From an uncultured virus (IMG/VR IMGVR_UViG_3300020056_000011) (Duplodnaviria > Heunggongvirae > Uroviricota > Caudoviricetes): a stretch of DNA of 60,676 nt. Of the stretch, positions 9,707 through 38,521 are shown in pieces. The position numbers and the translations under genes are program-made. Where the stretch lies: the IMG/VR virus record IMGVR_UViG_3300020056_000011; one strand, 5' to 3'. The notes beneath the pieces are model-generated. The model was not told the origin of the DNA. It searched no databases and saw only the letters and a list, made by a program, of their open reading frames with translations. The stretch's first letter is position 1. Each line of letters opens with the position of its first letter.

Positions 9707-12172
9707 CTATCTTTCAGCCCAAAGGTCTGCATCCGACTTCCGTGCGCCACCGCCAGTGATAAATGAATTGACTCTAGCAAATGCCCACTGTTGTGGAGTA
9801 GTTCCTGGCCTATGTCCTGTTTTCCAAGCAGCCATACCTCTGTCATATACCTTTTTTAGAATACCATATGAAATACCCGACTTTTCTGCTTTCTTTTTAA
9901 GTCCCTCGATTTGTTCATCTAGTTCTTCTTTGATAGAATTTTTGGCAAATTTGATCGCTTTTTCTGGGCCCTTGGCCGTATTACCTGTTTCTTTTGAATC
10001 CCAGAACATATTCCACACTTTACTACGTGCTGCATCATTTTTAGCTTGTTTCATGTATTTGTTTAAAATATCAGCATCTGCCTTTGAAAGTTTGTAATCT
10101 AACTTATCATCATATCTTAGATTACCACCTACTTTGTAATTTGTGTCGCCCTTATATTTCCATCTTTCTTCATCAAGTTCAACTTGTTCTTTAATAGAAT
10201 TTCTATAAAGAGTCTCTAAATCTTTACCCGACACTCCACTGAAAGATTTAGCGATAGTATATACATATGATTTTAAAGACTGTTTATCACCTTTTGATGC
10301 AATCAATTTTTTTAACGCATCAAGAGCAGCCATATTCATTCTTTCTTTATTGGTTGCAATTTTTTCATCAACAGTTTCATTTTTTTCTTTTGCTTTAAGA
10401 TATGCGGCAACCGCCATTTGTCTTATTTTTTCATCGGACTTACCTTTGAATTGCGGAGCATCTGATTTTCTAAAATCATCGATGTAATCACCAGCATCAG
10501 CATCTTTGCCTAGTTTTTCATTTTTCTTACCATATTCCATAACTTTTTTACCCAATGGCGTCAAGTTACCTTTTTTGTCATACATTTTATCAATAAGTTT
10601 TTTTTCTGCTGATGTCAATTCTTTAAGATTTCCATCATCATCGTATTTTCCCGATTTTTTCTTTGCAATAGCAATGGCAGCTTGTTGAGCTGGATTTGCT
10701 GCTTCTTTTTTATTATCCTTAGACATAGAACCCTGTTTTACAACACCAGAATTCTTAATTTTGCTGACAAGCTTCAAACGGCGCATGTTAGATATTTCGT
10801 TAAGTTTTTCTTCAATATTCATATCTACCTCTTCGTATTTTAATTCTTTACTTGATGTAGAGAAGTTTTTCTTACGCATGATTGTTTTATGTACAACTTC
10901 AAACTCACCATTCTTATAGTTGATAACTACAGGCAGATTTAAGTTAGTTGACATGTCTTTGAGAACTGCTTCGATATCGGGGTTCGCCTTGATCTGAGAA
11001 CCTTTTTTCTTCTGAATCTTTTTGAAAAACTTTTGAAGTTCTGCAACTTTGATCTCTGGATCGTTTCTATTGTCATTCATTCTATCAACAAAATGTCTTG
11101 TAAATGTAATATCAATATCATATTTTGCAAGCATTCTATCTGCAAATTTTTCCAAATCGTCTATTTGTTTTTGAGATACATCCTCTCCATACATTTTATG
11201 ATATAGGTTGGTGTATTTTGAGGGTTTTGTTTTTGCATTCGCATCGCCAGGTGCTGGTTTGTAAGAACTGTCTGAATCGTCTGATTTTTTTCCATATTTT
11301 GCGAAATGTCTTGCGCGAGCTTGTTTTGTTGACTTTGACATTTCATCGCCGTCTGCATCTTTTGCGTAGTATTTTTTAGGTTGTGTACCTTCTCTATCTT
11401 CGATATCTTTGTCCTGAGCAACCTTTCTTTCCGCAAAAAATTCTTCATATATCTCGTTGTACAGGTTGTTATCAGTTGCATCGTCTACATATCCCATATA
11501 ATCTGTTTGCATAAACTCTAGCAAATCATCTCCAACGGAATTAAGAAATTCGATCATTTCTTCGCTGAGGTTCATTGCTTTTCTTAGGTCTGCAAAGAGT
11601 TTCTTTCCATGCGTTCTTTCAAATTTACTTGGAAGTCCACTCTTGAATCCTTGAAGAATTTTTCCACCAATCTTTTCATCTTCGTATCTATTAGCAGCTG
11701 CAGCTGCTCTCATTTTAGATGCAGACATACCACTTACATCAGTAGCATTTTCATCTCTTTCTCCGGCAGAAACAATTTCAACTCCATTTTCAAACTCATA
11801 GAAACCATGACTACCAGAAACACCATTGTACTTATTCAATATTGTTTCAAATTCTGAAACTCTATCGCCACCTACAACCATAATACATCTTTCATATCCC
11901 ATCTTATATAGCATAGGAACGATATTAAAAGCAGATTTTGCATCTTTATTGGACATGATATTCTTAGAATATTTTGGAAACATTTTCTTCATATAAGAAA
12001 CTTTTGTTCTAAAATCTAGAGGGTCTTTTTTAGGATTTGTAGATTGACTTGGAAATACCATAAAATCCGCCTTTTCGCTTCTTGCGACGGCAGCAACTTT
12101 CTCTATTAGTTTTTCATGTCCAGTTGTTGGTGGATTAAATCTACCAAATGTAAAAACTACAGTATCTTTCAT
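9707..12172 (-). CDS. Cytidylyltransferase-like (HxGH nucleotidyltransferase) domain fused to multiple C-terminal modules
   Basis: VVFTFGRFNPPTTGHEKL, MVVGGDRV and SASKMR motifs; C-terminal KAEKSGISYGILKKVYDRGMAAWKTGHRPGTTPQQWAFARVNSF module. Confidence 0.8.
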   Translation of the reverse strand: MKDTVVFTFGRFNPPTTGHEKLIEKVAAVARSEKADFMVFPSQSTNPKKDPLDFRTKVSYMKKMFPKYSKNIMSNKDAKSAFNIVPMLYKMGYERCIMVVGGDRVSEFETILNKYNGVSGSHGFYEFENGVEIVSAGERDENATDVSGMSASKMRAAAAANRYEDEKIGGKILQGFKSGLPSKFERTHGKKLFADLRKAMNLSEEMIEFLNSVGDDLLEFMQTDYMGYVDDATDNNLYNEIYEEFFAERKVAQDKDIEDREGTQPKKYYAKDADGDEMSKSTKQARARHFAKYGKKSDDSDSSYKPAPGDANAKTKPSKYTNLYHKMYGEDVSQKQIDDLEKFADRMLAKYDIDITFTRHFVDRMNDNRNDPEIKVAELQKFFKKIQKKKGSQIKANPDIEAVLKDMSTNLNLPVVINYKNGEFEVVHKTIMRKKNFSTSSKELKYEEVDMNIEEKLNEISNMRRLKLVSKIKNSGVVKQGSMSKDNKKEAANPAQQAAIAIAKKKSGKYDDDGNLKELTSAEKKLIDKMYDKKGNLTPLGKKVMEYGKKNEKLGKDADAGDYIDDFRKSDAPQFKGKSDEKIRQMAVAAYLKAKEKNETVDEKIATNKERMNMAALDALKKLIASKGDKQSLKSYVYTIAKSFSGVSGKDLETLYRNSIKEQVELDEERWKYKGDTNYKVGGNLRYDDKLDYKLSKADADILNKYMKQAKNDAARSKVWNMFWDSKETGNTAKGPEKAIKFAKNSIKEELDEQIEGLKKKAEKSGISYGILKKVYDRGMAAWKTGHRPGTTPQQWAFARVNSFITGGGARKSDADLWAER

Positions 12173-28609: not shown

Positions 28610-28889
28610 CATTTTCTCCATAAGTCATATCATGATTATATAAAGCCAGTATACCATAATGAATGATTTTAAGCAAGTCTTTTCTCCAATCTTCTGTGGA
28701 ACCTTTTTTACCATATCGATTAGAGTATTTGTCTATATTGCCCATACAAAAACCTTCACCATGTCCTCTGCCCATGATTACTTCAGTTGATTGGTATGTG
28801 TTTTTAGAATAATGACCTTCGTAGGTCTTATCAATGTATGCTCGAACTTCTTCGAGCAATACATCTTCATTGAATTTATAGTCTATCAA
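28584..28889 (-). CDS. DUF3310-like conserved phage protein
   Basis: HYS..GFCMGNIDKYSNRYGKKG..DLLKIIHY. Confidence 0.7.
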   Translation of the reverse strand: MIDYKFNEDVLLEEVRAYIDKTYEGHYSKNTYQSTEVIMGRGHGEGFCMGNIDKYSNRYGKKGSTEDWRKDLLKIIHYGILALYNHDMTYGENDEHQSETF

Positions 28890-30046
28890 AAGGGTACTTC
28901 CTCTTCATATGTTTCTTCAGTTTCAGTTTCATTGATTTCTTCTCCGCCATAAATTTTGGAAAATAGATCTACAAATGATGCTTTCGTATCATCATCAAAA
29001 CGATTTGTACAAAGTTCAACAGCCTTCAAAACATTTCCAAAGATAGAGAATGTTTCTACAATGTGAACCAAACGCCGAGTCGAAATGATTTCATCAATCC
29101 CACCCTCTTCAAAGGTTTTACGAATGGCAGATGCCCAAACCGTAAGATTTTCAATCACCGACACATCTTCATCAGTAACAGAACCTTTGCAAGATTGCAG
29201 ATGGTTGCTGAGAATTTTTTTCTCAACTGATTGATTGGGATATTCTTGTTCAAATGTAATTTTGAAACGCTCAAGAAACGCCTCGTTCATTACATTAGTA
29301 CCAATGAAACGTCCATCATCAGAACCTTTACCTTTTGTGTTTGCTGTAGCAATCACAGTAAAGCCGGGAGCTGGTTTTACAAACCGATTATCTTTTTTGA
29401 GGTAAACACCTTTACCATCAATAATGGATTGCAAACACATAATTTTATTTGATGCAAGGTCAACTTCATCAAGAATAAGAACTGCGCCACGTTCCATTGC
29501 GTCAATTACAGGGCCCTGAGAAAACAGAACATTACCATCAACAAGAGTTTTGTCGCCAAGAAGGTCAGATTCATCAGTTTCGATTGTAATAGGAACCGTG
29601 ATACATTCACGATTTAGTTGGGCACAAAGTTGTTGTGTTCCATAAGTTTTACCGTTACCAGACAAACCAGTAATGAAAACAGGATAAAACATTTTTGATT
29701 GAAGGATAGTTTTCAAATCATTGTAAAATCCAAATTTCACAAAGTTAGGATCTTTCTCTGGAACGAGAGAATCGATATGACGTTCAGGCAAAACTACTGT
29801 AGTAGGAACAGCAGTCACTGTTTGTGCAACTGGTTTCATCTGGACTACATTACCAGTGAGTTTCATTGCATATTTTGAAATATCATATTTACCATGTCCG
29901 GCTCGAAATTCTGGTTTCCACATCCATTGTGGACTTGCTTCACCAAAAGCGGAAGCCGCCGACTTGATTTCTTGTTTGGAAACAACAGAACCACTTTCTG
30001 CCATGAGTTTCGTAAGAAACTCAATTTTTTTCGTTTTATTCCACAT
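28886..30046 (-). CDS. MoxR/CobS-like AAA+ ATPase
   Basis: GLSGNGKT, ITIETDESDLLG, LILDEVD, ATANTKGKGSDDGRFIGTNVMNEAFLERF, ISTRRLVHI. Confidence 0.9.
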   Translation of the reverse strand: MWNKTKKIEFLTKLMAESGSVVSKQEIKSAASAFGEASPQWMWKPEFRAGHGKYDISKYAMKLTGNVVQMKPVAQTVTAVPTTVVLPERHIDSLVPEKDPNFVKFGFYNDLKTILQSKMFYPVFITGLSGNGKTYGTQQLCAQLNRECITVPITIETDESDLLGDKTLVDGNVLFSQGPVIDAMERGAVLILDEVDLASNKIMCLQSIIDGKGVYLKKDNRFVKPAPGFTVIATANTKGKGSDDGRFIGTNVMNEAFLERFKITFEQEYPNQSVEKKILSNHLQSCKGSVTDEDVSVIENLTVWASAIRKTFEEGGIDEIISTRRLVHIVETFSIFGNVLKAVELCTNRFDDDTKASFVDLFSKIYGGEEINETETEETYEEEVPF

Positions 30047-30095
30047 TATATATTCTCCACTTGGAAGGTTTCACGAATCATCAATTACATTATTA

Positions 30096-30124
30096 TGGTA
30101 TCAAATGATAGCCCTTTTGTCAAG
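30096..30124 (-). promoter_or_regulatory. Sigma70-type promoter upstream of the CobS-like gene, -35 inside a GCCCTT/AAGGGC inverted repeat
   Basis: TTGACA-N17-TACCAT; hairpin at 30111-30127. Confidence 0.55.
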
Positions 30125-30137
30125 GGCTTTTCATTTT

Positions 30138-32513
30138 TTACTTCACGATATCGACAAATTTATTTAACATTTGCCGACTGGTTTTCTTTGAACCTTGGAA
30201 TTTTGAAAACTGTTTGGCAATTTTTGCTTTTGTCATATTTTCATCAACTTCAAGTTCACTATCTTCATTTTGAGTACGCATATCAAGAATATAGTATTCA
30301 TCATACCCACAATCTTTTGCTGCATAAAACCCATTTTTGCGACACTCTGAACGAACTTTTGAAAGTTCGTTATTATACATATGGTATCCATCACGATCCC
30401 GAAATACATATGCCCGAATTGCGTTATTTAGATCATAAGTACGGTCTATAATGTAAAATCCAATCGATTTTGCACCATGAACTTCTTTCATTGTTTCGAC
30501 AAGAAACTCAGTAGGATTTTTTGCATTTTTATTTTTAGAACGATAACCTTGTTGATGAACGAAAGTCTTTTTTGAACGCTCATGATAAACCACAGAAGTT
30601 TTGGGATGATGCCGCCAGGTTGCTGCAACTGAACGATGCCAACCAGAATTTTCATCAACTATCTCAATTGTATCGCCGGCAGCACCATCACTCAAAACAA
30701 CAAAGTTCATTTTTTCTACAGAATGTTTCCGTTTGAATTCATGAACAACTTTGTCAAGAATCATCAAACTTTGATTTAGAGGAGTTCCACCAAGCTGAAG
30801 ATCGACATTATGAGGCAATTTGTTAGAACGCATCAATCCATAACAATTGTTCAATCCCCAAGCCAAAAACAGATAGTTGTTACATGCCCTGATAAATTCT
30901 GATTTTTTCATTGAACTGCTGAGAACATGATGAAGTTTAACATTATTATAGATAAATGTCCGATTGTTATAAACACCGTTCTTTTTATCGGCAAACAACT
31001 TTTTACCATCATCATAATCTCGGTTTTGATCAGAGAAATTGTAAACATCAAAAGGAATTCCAACACGTTTACAAAATGTGGCAAGGACAACAGTTTGAAC
31101 AACGGTCTTATATAACATAGAGTGCATAGAACCCGACCAATCGACCATCATTACCATGCCATGATTTTTGCCTTCTGGAGTAATCGATTTACGTTTGAAG
31201 ATATCATCATTTAGTTTGTAACTCCAAATTTTGCTGGTATTCAGATTTCCAGATTTTGTTTCATAACTCGCTGCATATTCTTGTGCAGATTTTTTCATTT
31301 CAAATTCTTTTACAAGATAGTTTATAGTAGCGTTGTTATCACTCAATACTTTTTTGTAAAGAGAAATCTTGTCTACATTATTTTTTGCAAAACTAGTCCA
31401 ATCTGAGTTATTGTAAAAATAAGTTTTGGCCGCATCGATTGCATCATGAATCATATCATGACTTATCACATGATCTTTCAGATTTAAATCAGATAATGTG
31501 TAATATTCAATATTATCTGCCATACGATCAATCATTTGTGACATATTTTCTGACATTGAATTGTCAGTTTTAGAGGAAAATTCATCAGGGTCAGAGAAAC
31601 CACTTCCACCACCCAATGATGCAACATCATTTGCATTTTGTTCTTCTTCAGCTGATGTATAAGATTTTCCATTTTCTCCATCAGATTCGTCATCAGAAGA
31701 ATTAGAAGAACTACCAGATTCTTGTGAATTTTGTTCATCTTCACCTGTATCATCAGAAGAACCGCCATCACCAGAACCATCCGTTTGATTTTCTTCTTCA
31801 TTTTCAGTTTCAGTTTGAGAAGATGAAGAAGAGTGTGAATTGTCATCTTTTAGTTCTGACATTTCTGAATTTTGAGATTGTTCACCAGAACCTTCACCAC
31901 CACTTTGTTGGGAATTCTGTTCTTGACGATTTTGAACTTTATCTTTGATGAAGTTGTAAATCTCTTCTGCAACAGCTGCAACTTCTTCGAAAGTTTCTGT
32001 TTTTCCAACTTTCTTCACAAGAGGTTTTTCTTCTTCTGAAAATATCATGTTAAACTCAAAATCATTCATTGAAGATTTGTAAAACAGATTGATACGGTCA
32101 ATGAAAGAAAAGGTAGAAATTTCTTTATTATTTGTCCCAAAGAAATCTCGCTCATTTAACTCTTGATATCCTTTGTAGAAAGGAGCCCGCAAGCCAGGGA
32201 ATTTTATTTTCATCATTTTCTCAATACGAGCATCTTCGACTACGTTTACAAAGTCTTTGTTGGAACGGTCGATTGCTTCTTGGAGAACTTCTGTATCCGC
32301 TGGAGTATATAAAGCATGTCCAACTTCATGACCCATAAACAAGTCATAAAGGTTATCGGACATATCTTTCCAAATTGGTACAACTAATAGACGTTTTTCA
32401 ACGTCAAAAAACGCGGTTTCAACTTTACGATGTTGAACCGTAAGGTCTTCTTCTGCCATCAGTTTGGCTAGGAGACTTTTGGAGTTCTTTGTAAATAGAA
32501 CATTTGACATCAC
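30138..32513 (-). CDS. CobT-like protein: N-terminal HExxH metallopeptidase-like domain, acidic linker, VWA domain
   Basis: GHEVGHALYT, NVVEDARIEK, Ser/Gly/Glu linker, MIDAS DWSGSM, GGTPLN, LSDG. Confidence 0.85.
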   Translation of the reverse strand: MMSNVLFTKNSKSLLAKLMAEEDLTVQHRKVETAFFDVEKRLLVVPIWKDMSDNLYDLFMGHEVGHALYTPADTEVLQEAIDRSNKDFVNVVEDARIEKMMKIKFPGLRAPFYKGYQELNERDFFGTNNKEISTFSFIDRINLFYKSSMNDFEFNMIFSEEEKPLVKKVGKTETFEEVAAVAEEIYNFIKDKVQNRQEQNSQQSGGEGSGEQSQNSEMSELKDDNSHSSSSSQTETENEEENQTDGSGDGGSSDDTGEDEQNSQESGSSSNSSDDESDGENGKSYTSAEEEQNANDVASLGGGSGFSDPDEFSSKTDNSMSENMSQMIDRMADNIEYYTLSDLNLKDHVISHDMIHDAIDAAKTYFYNNSDWTSFAKNNVDKISLYKKVLSDNNATINYLVKEFEMKKSAQEYAASYETKSGNLNTSKIWSYKLNDDIFKRKSITPEGKNHGMVMMVDWSGSMHSMLYKTVVQTVVLATFCKRVGIPFDVYNFSDQNRDYDDGKKLFADKKNGVYNNRTFIYNNVKLHHVLSSSMKKSEFIRACNNYLFLAWGLNNCYGLMRSNKLPHNVDLQLGGTPLNQSLMILDKVVHEFKRKHSVEKMNFVVLSDGAAGDTIEIVDENSGWHRSVAATWRHHPKTSVVYHERSKKTFVHQQGYRSKNKNAKNPTEFLVETMKEVHGAKSIGFYIIDRTYDLNNAIRAYVFRDRDGYHMYNNELSKVRSECRKNGFYAAKDCGYDEYYILDMRTQNEDSELEVDENMTKAKIAKQFSKFQGSKKTSRQMLNKFVDIVK

Positions 32514-32547
32514 ATATTTCCTTCATAGGAATCATCACTTATATTTA

Positions 32548-32576
32548 CATGCTACAGGAACGAATCAGTTTTGTCA
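32548..32576 (-). promoter_or_regulatory. Sigma70-type promoter upstream of the CobT-like gene
   Basis: TTGACA-N17-TAGCAT. Confidence 0.6.
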
Positions 32577-32585
32577 AGGGCCTTT

Positions 32586-33284
32586 TTATTTTTTTATGGC
32601 AATTGCTCCAACAAACATATGATTTCTCCAGAAAGGTTGGACATCTTCAAAACCTGCGTCCCACATCATTTCATTTATTTCTTGCCAAGTGTTTGGTTTC
32701 AACATGTTTCTAAGAGTTCTTTCTTTATTCATAATATCTTCTGTATCAAAAGATTTTCTTTTGAAATCATAATAATTAAATGTGAGCATGTCTTGAAAAT
32801 TTGCATTTTGACAAATAGTTTTTTCTGCAAAAATAAAACCGCCACCTTCATTCAATCCATCATGAATTCTTTGAATAGTAAATCGCCGATCAATTTTTGA
32901 CATAAACTGCAAAGTAAATATTGAAGTAATTAAAGAGGCATTTTCAAATTCAGTGTCTCTTACATCTTCATGTCTAAAATCAACACGGACCCAAGGGTGT
33001 ATTGATCTGATATGCTCCTGTCTTTTTATCATATCATCATAAAATCCATTTGCAACTTCAATACCAATATAATTTGCATCATAACAAAAATCCTGATTTG
33101 CCTCCAACATTCGTTGAGTCAGTTTACCAGTTGAACATCCAATATCATAAACATTAGTACCATCTTCCACAAAGTATCTTGATAGAGAAATTACATCATC
33201 CAACAAATCTCCATAACCTCTAATACTTTTATCAATATGTTCATCAAAACCTTCTTCGCGGTGTGCAAATGTGAAATCAGCCAT
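32586..33284 (-). CDS. CmoA-like SAM-dependent enzyme (carboxy-SAM synthase candidate)
   Basis: DFTF...FDEHIDKSIRGY...VYDIGCSTG...IFTLQFM...GGFIFAEK...KERTLRNML parallels CmoA motifs. Confidence 0.75.
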   Translation of the reverse strand: MADFTFAHREEGFDEHIDKSIRGYGDLLDDVISLSRYFVEDGTNVYDIGCSTGKLTQRMLEANQDFCYDANYIGIEVANGFYDDMIKRQEHIRSIHPWVRVDFRHEDVRDTEFENASLITSIFTLQFMSKIDRRFTIQRIHDGLNEGGGFIFAEKTICQNANFQDMLTFNYYDFKRKSFDTEDIMNKERTLRNMLKPNTWQEINEMMWDAGFEDVQPFWRNHMFVGAIAIKK

Positions 33285-34473
33285 TATATTTCTCCAAAAC
33301 ATTTTTATATACAGATTCTGCAATTCTTTTCATCATCAGTGGCGGAACCATCCTTCCAATTCTTTCTGCTTTTTGATTCCATTTTCCAGTAAGTTTAAAG
33401 TCATCTGGAAGTGACATAATGCGCTTCAGCTCGCCGAGGGTCAACTTTCTAGGTTCTGCCCAGTGGAATGCACCAGCAGTAGTATCAGCACTCCCCATAG
33501 CGGTTAAGGTCGGTGCTGGAGCATACTGTGATACTCTTTTCAAGTTAAAGTGGTGTCCTTTCGGGTGATAATCGCCTCCTGTTAGAACTTTATCTGGATC
33601 AACGGGCATTATACTACCAGTTTGTTTCCAATATGCAGTATTAGAAAACTTTTCAGTAAGATAAGAAATTTCTTCATCATCATATTCTAAACCAATCAAA
33701 GCATCTTTCAGAGGAATTGTTTTCAAATCTGGAGTTGGAAAAACATTTTGAATTGTCATAAAGTTCAAGCCAACTTGATCGGCAATGTCCTGTCTTACTC
33801 CAATAAAAATACATCTGGTTCGAGTCTGCGAAACTCCAAAATATCTACTATCCAAAACTTGATACGAAATATTATATCCAATTTCCTCGAATCTATTGAG
33901 TATTTGATTAAGATAGTTTTTTGCTTCTCCAACAGTCAATCCCTTAACATTTTCTGCAATGATTACTTTTGGTTTTATTTCATCAGCAATTCTCAGAAAA
34001 TCAAAAAACAAATCTTCAATATTTTCAACTATCTTTCCATCAGAATACTTTTTAGTTTGACCCCATCCATCAGAATGTTTACCACTTTCTTTGCGTGTCA
34101 TAACATTACCATCAAAATCTAAGTATTCAGTTTCAATACTATTATGAGATAGTTTGCCTGCCACAGAAAACGCAGAACATGGCGGAGAACCATCCAGAAT
34201 ATCTATCTCCCCAACTTTTACTCCAGCTGCATCCAAGAAATGTTGCCCAGTCAATTCTTTAATATCGCCAGGCAGAATAGGTGTCTCTGGATAGTTTTCT
34301 TTATAGGTATTACATGCCTCTTCTACAAACTCATTTACTGCAAGAACCTTACCACCAGCAAGACGATAGCCAGTGGAAGATCCACCACCACCGGCAAAAG
34401 TTGAAATCACTTTAAATTTGTTCTGTTCAGATGCATCATAAACATCTTGTAAATTATATGGTGTATAACTCAT
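33277..34473 (-). CDS. C5 cytosine DNA methyltransferase-family enzyme, probable carboxymethyltransferase
   Basis: Motif I FAGGGG, IV GSPPCSAFS, VI ENVKG, VIII QTRTR; motif X reads IGRMVPP instead of GN(A/S)V. Confidence 0.88.
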   Translation of the reverse strand: MSYTPYNLQDVYDASEQNKFKVISTFAGGGGSSTGYRLAGGKVLAVNEFVEEACNTYKENYPETPILPGDIKELTGQHFLDAAGVKVGEIDILDGSPPCSAFSVAGKLSHNSIETEYLDFDGNVMTRKESGKHSDGWGQTKKYSDGKIVENIEDLFFDFLRIADEIKPKVIIAENVKGLTVGEAKNYLNQILNRFEEIGYNISYQVLDSRYFGVSQTRTRCIFIGVRQDIADQVGLNFMTIQNVFPTPDLKTIPLKDALIGLEYDDEEISYLTEKFSNTAYWKQTGSIMPVDPDKVLTGGDYHPKGHHFNLKRVSQYAPAPTLTAMGSADTTAGAFHWAEPRKLTLGELKRIMSLPDDFKLTGKWNQKAERIGRMVPPLMMKRIAESVYKNVLEKYNG

Positions 34474-35330
34474 ATATTATACCTTCTCAAACTATTCGGA
34501 TTTTTATACCAATCTTTACAAACATCCATTATTCTTTTTCTATTATTGAAATTAATTGTCGAGTCTTTCAAAAAAGTTTCAAACAATTTATCTATACCAG
34601 AACCGAGGTGTAAATTTATATGTGGCTTTATATTACCATACTTTTTTAGTATTGTAAAGTCTTTTCTTATAATTTCTTTTTGTCTGGGTGTATTTAACTC
34701 TGTCCAACTCTTATTCATCAATTCTTTTCTAATATCTTTACTATCTTTATATGGTGCTATGTGTATCTTATCATGTTTTTCCGCAAGGGTTGTGTGTTCT
34801 TTGTAACCAGCACAGTCTCCATCAAGATATTCAAGTCTGAATTCGTTCCAGTTCAATCTTTTTTGATTGTGTTCTTTACAATATTTAACATAGTTTTTTT
34901 TATTTCTATAACTAGAATATCGCATCATAGCTTTTTTACTTGGTCCAAAGTATCCATCCGCCCCCCAACCAGTAAGAACATACTTTTCTTTTATTTTTGG
35001 ATAAACATATAGGAAAGGAAATACACACTCAAAATGAGTTTTCTTTCTACAACCCAAATCAACTAATCTAAACCAATCTTCATTAAGATTTGTAGTAGGA
35101 ACAACTACTGGAGTAAAATTCCAACCTCTTTGTGATGCAATATTAGCAGCCATTGCAAAGTCATATGAAGGAACACCTTCAAGATAAAAACTATATGCGT
35201 TTACTTTCTTCCCAACTAGTTCAGCAGAAATACCAACAGATATAGAATCAAGACCACCACTTAATAGTAAACTAACTTCTTCATCTAACACATTATCTTT
35301 AATATGTTTTTCAAGATACTTTTTTATCAT
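34470..35330 (-). CDS. Asparagine-synthetase-like ATP-dependent amide ligase (PP-loop)
   Basis: LLLSGGLDS PP-loop, VLTGWGADGYFG; no glutaminase domain; start MIKKY at 35330. Confidence 0.8.
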   Translation of the reverse strand: MIKKYLEKHIKDNVLDEEVSLLLSGGLDSISVGISAELVGKKVNAYSFYLEGVPSYDFAMAANIASQRGWNFTPVVVPTTNLNEDWFRLVDLGCRKKTHFECVFPFLYVYPKIKEKYVLTGWGADGYFGPSKKAMMRYSSYRNKKNYVKYCKEHNQKRLNWNEFRLEYLDGDCAGYKEHTTLAEKHDKIHIAPYKDSKDIRKELMNKSWTELNTPRQKEIIRKDFTILKKYGNIKPHINLHLGSGIDKLFETFLKDSTINFNNRKRIMDVCKDWYKNPNSLRRYNI

Positions 35331-36720
35331 TTTTAATTTCGTTAGGTTCTGAATATGGTAAATCTTCAAAAATAAGAATAGGTCTAATATCTTCAGCAAA
35401 CTTTGAAAACAAAATTTGTAAATCATGTTCAATATTAGTTTTTCTTGTTGGTTTTAAAACCACATTACCTTCTTCATCTTTTTTAGTTTTTATCTTATTC
35501 CAATCTAAAAACGCTGTGTCTGATTCATTTAACCAGAATATTTTCCAATAATCTTTTTTAAATGCTTCCTCATTCTTTACAATATTCATTAGTGCGTCAA
35601 AACCTACCCATCTATTTGACCACCAAGCTGTGGATAAAATAAAAACAAAAGTATTCTCGTCTGTATGTCTTTCAATCATCTGAGACTTTTCTTTTTCAGT
35701 CCAGCTTTTTTTAATATGATTGGGTGGTATTGCATTTTTTGCTTTACTATCATTTAGTGTATTTCGTAAAGTTTTTCTAATAGTTGCTTCCCATTCAGTT
35801 TTAGTAAATCCCCAACGCATGAATTTATCTTTTACACTTTGGTCTTTATGGTCTTCAATATTATTATTTCTAATAAAAGAAACGGCATTTGATATAGCCT
35901 CTGATAAACTTACAGAATCATTTACCTTATCATCTCTTTTGTTATCTGTATGTCCTAAATCTTTAATTTCAGTTTCGTCTAAATTAATCCAATCTTTTTT
36001 CGGTATAAAGACAGCATCTAATTCACCAACAAAATCTGTTTTCATACAAGCTTTTAGTGTGTGAAAACTACCTATCCTAAGATGTTTATCTTTACCATAG
36101 AAATCTTTAAGAATTAAAACGTAATGAAAATTTCCATCCAACCATCTACCTTTTGTATCTAGTATATGATTAAGAATAGATTGCACCTTATTAGGTATTT
36201 CCATTACTTCTCTTACTTGGTGTGGTTGTATAGCATAGAGTTTATGTTTATCTACTTTTTGAATTGGATATACATTTTTTTCTAAGTTATAAACAATATT
36301 ATCTAATGCAGTAATTGATTTTTGACCTTTAGTTAATGCACCACCACCATTGCTCTCATTGAAGAACTTTTCATTAGACTTTGCATCGATAGCCTTCAGT
36401 ATTTTACCCTCCCTCACATTCATATCTCTTGGAGTTCCAACATTAAAACATAAAGTTAAACTAGGATACTTTCGCATATCTGACCAGAACTTTTTTGAAT
36501 GTTTAACTGGCGAACCATAGTATGTACCATTAAACTCACCTTTATGCCACCCAAAATATCTATCCATTGTCTCTCCAGAATTTATGAAAGTGCAATATAG
36601 GTGAGCACCATAAATGTCTGGTAATTCAATAAGTGATATGTGGTCAGAGTCCACCCTAAGTTTTTGTAAATCTTGAAAACTACTATTTGTGATAATATTA
36701 ATTATTTCATCTTCATTCAT
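35311..36720 (-). CDS. Hypothetical protein with Seg/GIY-YIG-like N-terminal region and possible ParB-like region
   Basis: HLYC..RYFGWHKG..YYGS..REGKILKAIDAKSNEKFFNESNGG; later HLRIGSFHTLKA; AGAGGA RBS before MNEDE. Confidence 0.5.
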   Translation of the reverse strand: MNEDEIINIITNSSFQDLQKLRVDSDHISLIELPDIYGAHLYCTFINSGETMDRYFGWHKGEFNGTYYGSPVKHSKKFWSDMRKYPSLTLCFNVGTPRDMNVREGKILKAIDAKSNEKFFNESNGGGALTKGQKSITALDNIVYNLEKNVYPIQKVDKHKLYAIQPHQVREVMEIPNKVQSILNHILDTKGRWLDGNFHYVLILKDFYGKDKHLRIGSFHTLKACMKTDFVGELDAVFIPKKDWINLDETEIKDLGHTDNKRDDKVNDSVSLSEAISNAVSFIRNNNIEDHKDQSVKDKFMRWGFTKTEWEATIRKTLRNTLNDSKAKNAIPPNHIKKSWTEKEKSQMIERHTDENTFVFILSTAWWSNRWVGFDALMNIVKNEEAFKKDYWKIFWLNESDTAFLDWNKIKTKKDEEGNVVLKPTRKTNIEHDLQILFSKFAEDIRPILIFEDLPYSEPNEIKNDKKVS

Positions 36721-36762
36721 GTGAAAAAATCCTCTAATGTAGTTTGAGTGACGTATTATCTC

Positions 36763-36792
36763 AGTATATACCATTACTGCATGGTTCGTCAA
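36763..36792 (-). promoter_or_regulatory. Sigma70-type promoter heading the modification cassette
   Basis: TTGACG-N18-TATACT with upstream A tract. Confidence 0.55.
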
Positions 36793-36802
36793 TAGTTTTT
36801 TT

Positions 36803-38521
36803 TCAATTTTTTTCAATTTGGCTAAAGTTTTTTACTTTTTCAAATTTAATCACACTGTGAAACTTATCATATAGAATATCTCCTTTATGTGAAATCACAA
36901 AGACATTGTTGCCGCCTAATGTGTTCAACAACTTCAAAAACTCGTCTGTACCAGTCGCATCCAAAGAACTATCAAACACCTCATCAAGAATCAGAAGATT
37001 TGTGTTGACACTGTTCTTCATTCGAGCAATCTCTCTCCAAGTAAACAAGAGAGCAAGGTCAATTCTCATCTTCTCTCCTTCACTAAAAGAACTATATGTA
37101 AATCCTTCTCTGCCTCTGGATTTAATATTCTCATTAAACTTTTCATCCATTGTGAAGTTAATATAGAAATCCATTTCTTGTAGATACTTATTTACTAACT
37201 TGTTCATTATTGGCAAATAGTATTTTATAATAGAAGTTTTTACACCAGTGTCCTTCAAAAACTGTGATGCAACCACATGATAGTTTTTTGTTTCGGAAAG
37301 AGTTTTGCGTTCATTGTCCAACTCTTTGGAAATCTTTTTAAACTCTTTTAATTCCTTTTCTAATTTAGAAACGCTTGTATTATTATTTTCCGCATCTTCT
37401 ATTTCAGCCTCAAGTTCATCAATATTTTTTTGTAGATATTGATGTTTATCATTATTAGAACTAACTACATTATTAAGATTTGTGATAGATGTTTTGGTTT
37501 CTTCAATATAATGTAATTCAGAATCAATCTCAATCAATTCATCAGACAAAGATTGAACAGCTGTCAAAACTTCTTCCTTTTTCTTATCCTTCTCTTCCAC
37601 AATACAATTCTTATGATCTTCATTAATATCTTGTTGGCATGATGGACAAACATCATTGCCTTCAAACCATGAGATGTCGTTTTGTATTTTTTCTGCATTA
37701 TTTGAGAGTTTAGTTTCTAGACGTTCAAGTTTTTTCTTTCTATCAGATATTTTACTTTCATGTATAATCTTTTCCAATAAATTTGATATTTGTTCATGCA
37801 ATTCTGTATTTTTGTCAATACACTGTTTCTGTTCAGCCTTCTTTTCTTTTATCTTTTTCTTAAAAGTATTAATCGCAGTTTTCTTTGTCGTCTTTGCATC
37901 TTCAATATTTCTTTCTTGAAGTTCAATCTTATAATCTTGGACTTCACGGTTTTTTTCATTTTCTGTCATTGTTTCTTTCAATGCAGCCATTTTTGCTTTT
38001 AGAATTTCATTCATTGCAGAAAAGATTTTTATATCCAAAATATCTTCAATAATTTCTCTTCTATCGATTGCAGAAAGTTGCATGAAAGGAACAAAAGTAG
38101 CACTACCCAAAATAACAGTTTGAGTAAATGACTTATAATTCAGTTTGAGAATGTTTTCTTCCAAATAAATCTGGCTATCACGAATTTTTGAATCTTGGTC
38201 TAACATTTTACCATTTACCCATATTTCAAAAATATTGGGTTTGATACCGCGGCGCACCAAGTAATCATTCTTACCAATTTTAAAGGTAATCTCAATCAAA
38301 GCATCTTTATTGTTTATAGAGTTTATAAGCTGTGGTTTATTAATTTTTCTAAAAGATTTTCCAAACAAACCAAATGTCAATGCATCCAAAATGGTAGATT
38401 TTCCTGCTCCATTCTCACCAACAATAAGAGTAGAAGATGAACGGTTTAGTTGCACTTCTGTAAAATAATTACCAGTGGAAAGAAAGTTCTTCCATTTAAT
38501 AGTTTTAAACTCAATCATCAA
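36803..38521 (-). CDS. gp46: Recombination endonuclease subunit, SbcC/Rad50-like (gp46)
   Basis: GENGAGKST, CPSCQQ zinc hook, FSEGEKMRIDLA, LILDEVFDSSLD. Confidence 0.96.
   Translation of the reverse strand: MMIEFKTIKWKNFLSTGNYFTEVQLNRSSSTLIVGENGAGKSTILDALTFGLFGKSFRKINKPQLINSINNKDALIEITFKIGKNDYLVRRGIKPNIFEIWVNGKMLDQDSKIRDSQIYLEENILKLNYKSFTQTVILGSATFVPFMQLSAIDRREIIEDILDIKIFSAMNEILKAKMAALKETMTENEKNREVQDYKIELQERNIEDAKTTKKTAINTFKKKIKEKKAEQKQCIDKNTELHEQISNLLEKIIHESKISDRKKKLERLETKLSNNAEKIQNDISWFEGNDVCPSCQQDINEDHKNCIVEEKDKKKEEVLTAVQSLSDELIEIDSELHYIEETKTSITNLNNVVSSNNDKHQYLQKNIDELEAEIEDAENNNTSVSKLEKELKEFKKISKELDNERKTLSETKNYHVVASQFLKDTGVKTSIIKYYLPIMNKLVNKYLQEMDFYINFTMDEKFNENIKSRGREGFTYSSFSEGEKMRIDLALLFTWREIARMKNSVNTNLLILDEVFDSSLDATGTDEFLKLLNTLGGNNVFVISHKGDILYDKFHSVIKFEKVKNFSQIEKN

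Follow-up and report, generated by a model that had tools for sequence, protein, structure and literature searches.

Described pathway and overview of the locus

The closest described counterpart of the locus reported here is the CmoA-CmoX-CmoY pathway of Synechococcus phage S-B43, published in December 2025 (Yang et al., Nat Commun 2025; PMC12783734). The locus lies at positions 32,586–36,720 of a 60,676-nucleotide stretch of DNA (hereafter, the window) from an uncultured virus of the Caudoviricetes (IMG/VR record IMGVR_UViG_3300020056_000011), and specifies a CmoA-like protein, a CmoX-like C5 transferase, a CmoY-like ligase and a fourth protein. As described in the text of that paper, the S-B43 CmoA (SpCmoA) produces carboxy-S-adenosylmethionine (carboxy-SAM) from S-adenosylmethionine (SAM) and prephenate; SpCmoX, a homologue of the C5 methyltransferases, writes 5-carboxymethylcytosine (5cxmC) at GC sites; and SpCmoY, an asparagine-synthetase-like ligase, joins glycine to the carboxyl group in an ATP-dependent reaction. 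In the virion DNA of S-B43 the glycine amide, 5gcxmdC, was present and free 5cxmdC was absent. Arg350 of SpCmoX takes the place of Asn304 in HhaI and contacts the carboxymethyl group of the cofactor; the wild-type enzyme accepted carboxy-SAM only, and the R350N variant accepted neither cofactor. The same source gives a census of phage sequences, including IMG/VR v4, with 5,615 candidate CmoX proteins, 4,257 CmoA proteins, 2,251 ligases and 1,660 ParBc proteins, and cites M.MpeI N374K as an engineered carboxymethyltransferase. An earlier note on the window, made without database searches, had mentioned a report of a similar trio in a Synechococcus phage; the report is that of Yang et al.

The genes of this region, which belongs to a marine T4-like myovirus, overlap one another and run in one direction as a unit. 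Judging from the predicted proteins, it is highly probable that the unit specifies a cytosine hypermodification pathway corresponding to the published CmoA-CmoX-CmoY one, with glycine as the likeliest amine. A route from a carboxy-SAM synthase through an Arg-type C5 carboxymethyltransferase to an amide ligase had been proposed in the earlier note, and is supported by full-length homology to the S-B43 trio. The profile and structure-sequence comparison that it had suggested returned matches to CmoA (TIGR00740, 4GEK), to C5 methyltransferases (PF00145, 8YF3) and to Asn_synthase (PF00733). The features of the unit are as follows.

32586..33284, minus strand: cmoA-like gene (232 amino acids), predicted carboxy-SAM synthase; start at ATG 33284, read from the sequence
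33277..34473, minus strand: cmoX-like gene (398 amino acids), predicted DNA cytosine C5-carboxymethyltransferase; from PF00145, 8YF3 and identity to SpCmoX
33352..33354, minus strand: AGG codon for R374, the motif X Arg equivalent to R350 of SpCmoX; from the sequence and the alignments to 8YF3 and M.HaeIII
34177..34188, minus strand: SPPC motif IV, residues 96–99, with predicted catalytic C99; invariant columns, aligned with S95–C98 of SpCmoX
34470..35330, minus strand: cmoY-like gene (286 amino acids), predicted ATP-dependent amide ligase of the PP-loop type, lacking a glutaminase domain; from PF00733 and identity to SpCmoY
35244..35261, minus strand: PP-loop SGGLDS, ligase residues 24–29; from the translation
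35311..36720, minus strand: fourth gene (469 amino acids from M33 of a 501-residue open reading frame); from homologue lengths, AlphaFold2 model and fold matches

The list of open reading frames (ORFs) places the trio at 34470–35432, 33277–34473 and 32586–33323 on the minus strand. The sequence confirms the junctions of the three overlapping genes (ligase, C5 transferase and CmoA-like protein) described in the earlier note: an ATGA at 34473–34470 is common to the ligase stop and the transferase start, and ATGGCTGA at 33284–33277 is an 8-nt overlap of the transferase stop with the ATG of the CmoA-like gene. The open frame of the latter extends up to a TTG at 33323; the start was placed at ATG 33284 because the alignment with SpCmoA begins there. 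The stop codon of the fourth gene (36720–35311), which the earlier note did not include, falls 20 nt inside the ligase gene. A promoter scan of 32300–37000 was not informative, with 18 promoter-like sites as against 22.2 +/- 5.2 expected by chance, and a terminator scan of the same interval gave one terminator-like site, inside the next gene.

Whole-genome absences were read from a near-identical virus record (G001; 203,815 bases, CheckV completeness 100), which shares 93% of sampled words with the window and in which the 4,231-base cassette region is 100% identical.

The CmoX-like transferase

The transferase contains a PF00145 (C5 cytosine DNA methylase) domain (Pfam search; E-value=4.8e-58) and scores 165.7 bits against TIGR00675, over the cut-off of 100.65. 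Its best match among sequences of the Protein Data Bank (PDB) is the SpCmoX structure 8YF3 (E-value=9.2e-141, residues 4–395), followed by M.HaeIII (E-value=1.5e-20), and it shows 58% sequence identity to SpCmoX of S-B43 (E-value=2e-165). The segments FAGGGG (residues 26–31), SPPC (96–99), ENV (174–176) and Q216-x-R218-x-R220 all fall in invariant columns; the C5-methyltransferase fold and the retention of motifs I, IV, VI and VIII, as noted previously, are confirmed.

The Arg that had been pointed out in motif X, at codon 33352–33354, is borne out to the base: R374 sits in ERIGRMVPP and is encoded by AGG at 33354–33352. It pairs with R350 in the alignment to SpCmoX (8YF3) and, in that to M.HaeIII, with the Asn of IGNAVP; both alignments thus place it at the cofactor-contacting position of motif X, where it had been supposed to lie. 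Nine SpCmoX residues were compared with the description in PMC12783734 (F25, E47, F48, D69, S95, P96, P97, C98 and R350) and all are conserved, their counterparts in the window being F26, E48, F49, D70, S96, P97, P98, C99 and R374; F25, E47, F48 and D69 are among the residues which that source lists as contacting the cofactor. Relative to SpCmoX, the window protein has 17 extra residues inserted behind motif IV, and 6 more in a second insertion. There are 1,776 GpC sites in the window, and 17% of its cytosines stand in a GpC context.

The CmoA-like protein

The third gene product matches the TIGR00740 CmoA model with 119.2 bits (E-value=2.2e-34) and the sequence of the E. coli CmoA structure 4GEK over residues 14–244 (E-value=5.2e-28). 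Its identity to SpCmoA is 61% over 229 residues (E-value=5e-107).

The CmoY-like ligase and its amine

Read from ATG 35330, the ligase matches PF00733 Asn_synthase above the cut-off (E-value=9.9e-11) and aligns from residue 1 with SpCmoY (41% identity, 213 bits, E-value=4e-73); against the sequences of solved structures no match was found at E <= 0.01. The protein begins 23 residues ahead of the PP-loop and for this reason has no glutaminase domain, a domain likewise missing from SpCmoY (PMC12783734, supplementary Table 1). Its absence makes glutamine-derived ammonia unlikely as the amine. The earlier note had proposed amidation with ammonia or another amine; the ligase homology upholds an amide as the product, but the amine joined by SpCmoY is glycine, giving 5gcxmC, and not ammonia. 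By homology, glycine is most likely also the amine joined by the window ligase.

Two of the related IMG/VR contigs have a gene for serine hydroxymethyltransferase (SHMT) a short way upstream of their CmoY-CmoX-CmoA cassette (L024:3687-4874; L025:563-1708); in L025 it adjoins the cassette directly. The two proteins match PF00464 with E-values of 2e-142 (L024) and 1e-148 (L025), and the ligases of these loci are 52–53% identical to that of the window. SHMT makes glycine from serine, and this gene context therefore fits glycine as the amine; the phage enzyme may furnish the ligase with glycine. In the main text of PMC12783734 none of the words SHMT, glyA, serine and hydroxymethyltransferase appears. 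No SHMT gene (PF00464) was found in G001.

Homologous loci

Relatives of the cassette are represented by 34 IMG/VR loci returned by a scan with the window ligase, 24 of which remain after removal of duplicates. The cassette is present at 100% protein identity in three of them (L008, L009 and L018). Among the 24 non-redundant loci the order is Y-X-A in 18, six of these with the fourth gene ahead; X-A-Y, X-Y-A and A-Y-X occur once each, and three loci are cut by a contig end. A complete CmoX-like ORF is present in 31/34 loci (L011, L027 and L040 are cut) and every one of the 31 has Arg at motif X: 27 were called by pattern, L010 and L017 read CGRMVPS and CGRMVPA, and L034 and L035 were read by eye. 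The PP-loop S-G-G-x-D-S is found in 33 of the 34 loci, the exception being L022, in which the called ORF lacks its N-terminus at the contig end.

The C5 methyltransferases of L034 and L035 are of another clade, in which motif IV is GTPC and motif X is GRSMSINV or GRAMSINV. In these loci (L034:3195-4127; L035:3582-4745) a CmoY homologue with 46% identity is followed by the different-clade enzyme and then by a distant CmoA-like gene (27–29%). The SPPC filter described in PMC12783734 would exclude these Arg-bearing enzymes.

Two further phages have partly similar genes. Methylophilales phage Melnitz-3 (L003:4001-5218) encodes a CmoX-like C5 transferase of 39% identity with Leu at motif X (RIGLMVAP), a position occupied by Arg in CmoX and by Asn in ordinary C5 methyltransferases; tblastn revealed no CmoA in its 9-kb locus. 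In Dickeya phage vB_DsoM_AD1 (L002, 4156–6855) genes for a CmoA-like protein (144.8 bits against TIGR00740), a DgcN-like protein (NF041892, E-value=6e-84) and an AsnS-like ligase, 34% identical to that of the window, lie side by side; the annotation of the 12.8-kb locus includes no C5 methyltransferase. This gene group may represent a different use of carboxy-SAM. The window ligase is also matched by 45 Erwinia phage records.

Proposed pathway and alternative explanations

By homology to the S-B43 enzymes, CmoA would convert SAM and host prephenate to carboxy-SAM. Cys99 of CmoX would attack C6 of cytosine and the carboxymethyl group would be moved to C5, with Arg374 holding the cofactor carboxylate; 5-carboxymethylcytosine is predicted to arise in this way in double-stranded DNA, with GpC as the probable site. 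CmoY would adenylate the carboxylate and join it to a free amine, most likely glycine, to yield 5-glycylcarboxymethylcytosine. The mark would most likely shield phage DNA from host restriction. The fourth, upstream gene, with its GIY-YIG-like and ParB/sulfiredoxin (Srx)-like domains, is part of the same unit.

Several observations weigh against this pathway or parts of it. The 119.2 bits of the window CmoA fall under the NCBIfam TIGR00740 equivalog cut-off of 193.3 bits; the biochemically validated SpCmoA, with 115.6 bits, is likewise below it, and the cut-off therefore sets apart the tRNA clade of bacteria rather than the activity. A chorismate mutase of the PF01817 type was not found in G001 (other types were not searched), and the supply of prephenate by the host is assumed. 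The variable, target-recognition-like part of CmoX (residues 237–340) is 43% identical to SpCmoX, as against 66–72% in the conserved blocks, which makes GC specificity an extrapolation. Finally, CmoY is only 41% identical to SpCmoY, so that glycine is no more than the likeliest amine.

This last point bears on an alternative in which the pathway is the same up to 5-carboxymethylcytosine and the ligase adds another amine, be it a polyamine, an amino acid other than glycine, or free ammonia, which would yield the simple amide. The absence of SHMT from G001 favours it too, as do the ligase clusters with differing pocket residues for which other amines are expected (PMC12783734). The 213-bit match to SpCmoY, the SHMT genes adjoining the cassette in two relatives and, where glutamine-derived ammonia is concerned, the lack of a glutaminase domain all argue for glycine instead, and a different amine appears rather unlikely. 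It is very improbable that the transferase is one of the ordinary 5-methylcytosine methyltransferases, with the CmoA-like protein serving tRNA (cmo5U) or only depleting host SAM. Such an assignment would agree with the fold and with motifs I, IV, VI and VIII, which are those of C5 methyltransferases, and with a CmoA score under the equivalog cut-off; yet Arg stands in place of the motif X Asn, the wild-type and R350N forms of SpCmoX behaved toward the two cofactors as given above (PMC12783734), G001 has no CmoB (PF08003) and only one C5-methyltransferase-type gene, and the three genes overlap and remain together in relatives. That the cassette has become inactive or is in decay is scarcely credible: the four frames are intact, the catalytic motifs are kept, three IMG/VR contigs and G001 carry the cassette at 100% identity, it is conserved across 24 non-redundant loci, and no point in favour of a remnant was found. 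The preferred explanation is thus a pathway of the S-B43 type that probably ends in the glycine amide.

The fourth gene

The ORF at 35311–36816 could specify 501 amino acids; because the homologues are 464–475 residues long, ATG 36720 is the likely start, giving 469 amino acids. The protein has no Pfam, PHROG or PADLOC match, and a 62-sequence profile of its family searched against PDB sequences gave a best E-value of 0.37, the matches being unrelated. An exhaustive HMMER search of 1.84 billion proteins gave 130 cluster representatives at E <= 0.001. In the 62-sequence alignment Y55, G57, Y67, E104, N121, Q168, R170 and N260 are invariant. In the AlphaFold2 model (pLDDT 92.1, pTM 0.74) a divergent GIY-YIG-like domain (approximately residues 38–124) is followed by a ParB/Srx-like domain (approximately 148–264), then by helices and, at the C-terminus, by an alpha/beta domain.

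The N-terminal domain, folded alone, gave a pLDDT of 92.4. Ranks 1–4 of 48,161 chains in a VIA-align search with it are all GIY-YIG nucleases, with modest Z-scores: I-TevI (Z=5.1; 82 residues, root-mean-square deviation 3.1), PD-T4-3 (Z=4.7), T4 EndoII (Z=4.2) and the UvrC N-domain (Z=3.7). PD-T4-3 is an endonuclease specific for 5-hydroxymethylcytosine (5hmC). Foldseek found no match to the isolated domain at E <= 0.001, and weak Pfam GIY-YIG or SegE matches were obtained for 3 of the 62 family members (E-values 0.003–0.0085). The catalytic set of GIY-YIG enzymes consists of Tyr...Tyr-x-Gly, Arg, Glu and Asn; Y42 (61/62 sequences) and Y55, G57, E104 and N121 (62/62) fit this motif, but the domain has no invariant Arg among the 62 sequences and Y67 is invariant instead. 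With moderate confidence, the modelled domain is regarded as GIY-YIG-like.

The central domain, in the model, has a ParB-N/Srx fold. Foldseek matched it to Noc (7NFU; E-value=9e-5), ParB (6SDK) and sulfiredoxin (1XW4), and VIA-align, with middling Z-scores, to 5K5D (Z=7.8), 6KY4 (Z=7.6) and 6RYK (Z=7.5), which represent ParB-N, sulfiredoxin and PadC. The ParB-type motif, which is GGNHT in the family, is GSFHT in the protein of the window. PF02195 (ParB_N) gave no match in this protein at E-values up to 10, nor in G001, nor in the 62 family members. ParBc (PF02195) proteins of unknown role are noted near CmoX in PMC12783734; since the present family has no PF02195 match, a Pfam-based ParBc count would probably miss it. 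The text of that paper does not mention a GIY-YIG or nuclease gene.

By the family profile, a member of the fourth-gene family is located directly upstream of cmoY in 10/34 loci (7/24 non-redundant), and the Melnitz OM43 phages have another, two genes downstream of a CmoX-like enzyme. Elsewhere, ordinary replication genes or genes for unannotated proteins unrelated to the fourth one stand immediately ahead of cmoY. These unannotated proteins include two groups of 340–370 residues with no Pfam match, one at L021:3584-4684, L040:4969-6000 and L041:1413-2441 and the other at L024:4932-5993 and L026:36-605.

Given the overlap of the fourth gene with cmoY and the placing of its relatives ahead of cmoY or near a CmoX-like enzyme, a tentative and rather doubtful suggestion is that the fourth protein is a partner of the modification pathway and not a passenger, namely a GIY-YIG/ParB-fold nuclease that would cut or mark unmodified GC-containing DNA, of the host or of a superinfecting phage, and spare the 5gcxmC-modified phage DNA. 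T4 EndoII acts on cytosine-containing DNA and not on hydroxymethylcytosine (hmC) DNA, and a nuclease partner of this kind would parallel it.

The virus and its host

The window encodes homologues of T4 gp23, gp20, gp18, gp17, gp43, gp41, gp44/62, gp45, gp46/47, gp55, UvsX, UvsY, UvsW and RegA, and is that of a T4-like myovirus; Hsp20, MazG, cobS and a 2OG-Fe(II) oxygenase are also encoded, and no tRNA genes were found in the window. A close cultured relative was sought with megablast: the 12 kb around the cassette, compared with 50,697 phage records, matched seven records, none of them with coverage above 4%. The major capsid protein is 53–56% identical to those of OM43, Pelagibacter, Synechococcus and Prochlorococcus phages alike, and the DNA polymerase is 51–52% identical to those of cyanophages. 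Assignment of a host from the core proteins was rejected, their identity of 51–56% being equal to cyanophages, pelagiphage and OM43 phages.

Neither a photosystem reaction-centre gene (PF00124; psbA/psbD) nor an hli-type gene (PF00504) was found in G001; Synechococcus elongatus, used as a control, was hit in both searches. To our knowledge, psbA is near-universal among T4-like cyanophages, and its absence, with that of psbD, makes a non-cyanobacterial host plausible. The earlier note had taken the host not to be cyanobacterial; the gene content of G001 agrees with this, but the equal distance of the core proteins from cyanophages, pelagiphage and OM43 phages does not help to place it.

The cassette is flanked in the window by a gp46-like SbcC gene on one side and, on the other, by a cobT-like gene followed by cobS. 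The cobS-like AAA ATPase (PF07728; phrog_249) and the 791-residue product of its neighbour are specified directly downstream of the cassette (28886–32513, minus strand). The latter protein, which is cobT-like, has an acidic, serine-rich, low-complexity middle and matches phrog_459 ("peptidase"). The same pair adjoins the cassette in L019 and L036. Elsewhere in the window, an 821-residue protein (9707–12172, minus strand) has an N-terminal cytidylyltransferase match (phrog_3041, phrog_395) fused to unassigned regions, and is adjoined by proteins of 418 and 442 residues without assigned function.

Comparison with known systems

On the evidence of its sequences, the trio is a further member of the published system, whose chemistry and wide spread in phage metagenomes are known already, and the window on its own adds little beyond it. 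The points that it does contribute are modest. The complete trio occurs in a deep-branching T4-like phage of marine origin whose near-identical 204-kb record, G001, has no photosystem genes; if confirmed, this would carry the ligase-bearing form beyond the cyanophage in which it was characterised. The recurrent, unannotated GIY-YIG-like/ParB-like gene that overlaps the ligase gene probably falls outside the Pfam-based ParBc count of PMC12783734, and the SHMT beside the cassette in two relatives is a gene-context clue for glycine that the main text of the paper does not contain.

The resemblance to S-B43 is extensive. The window proteins are full-length homologues of its trio (CmoA 61%, CmoX 58%, CmoY 41%), SPPC and the carboxylate-binding Arg are kept, a glutaminase domain is missing from the ligase, the genes adjoin and overlap one another, and both phages are T4-like. 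The gene order, however, is A-Y-X in S-B43 and Y-X-A in the window. The cassette of S-B43 lies between a primase-helicase/pyrophosphatase group and glutaredoxin, whereas that of the window lies between gp46 and the cobT-like/cobS pair, and its unit carries the extra upstream GIY-YIG-like/ParB-like gene. G001, near-identical to the window, lacks psbA and hli.

Synechococcus phage S-CRM01 is again similar, its CmoX and CmoA being 57% and 61% identical to the window proteins with the Arg kept. It differs in that tblastn detected no ligase homologue in its 11-kb locus and none is annotated there; S-CRM01 would therefore presumably stop at 5cxmC. Among proteins outside the trio, the likeness of the fourth gene product to GIY-YIG nucleases and to ParB, Noc and sulfiredoxin proteins is one of predicted folds, and it differs from them in having no sequence-level match and no invariant Arg.

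With the E. coli CmoA/CmoB system for cmo5U in tRNA the locus would share the chemistry of CmoA, carboxy-SAM being made from SAM and prephenate, as suggested by the match to 4GEK; the acceptor there is ho5U in tRNA and here would be C5 of cytosine in DNA, and G001 has no CmoB. The engineered M.MpeI N374K resembles the window transferase in that a basic residue at the position of the motif X Asn lets a C5-methyltransferase fold use carboxy-SAM. In M.MpeI this residue is an introduced Lys and the sites are CG, whereas the window enzyme has a natural Arg and belongs to a clade shown to act at GC sites.

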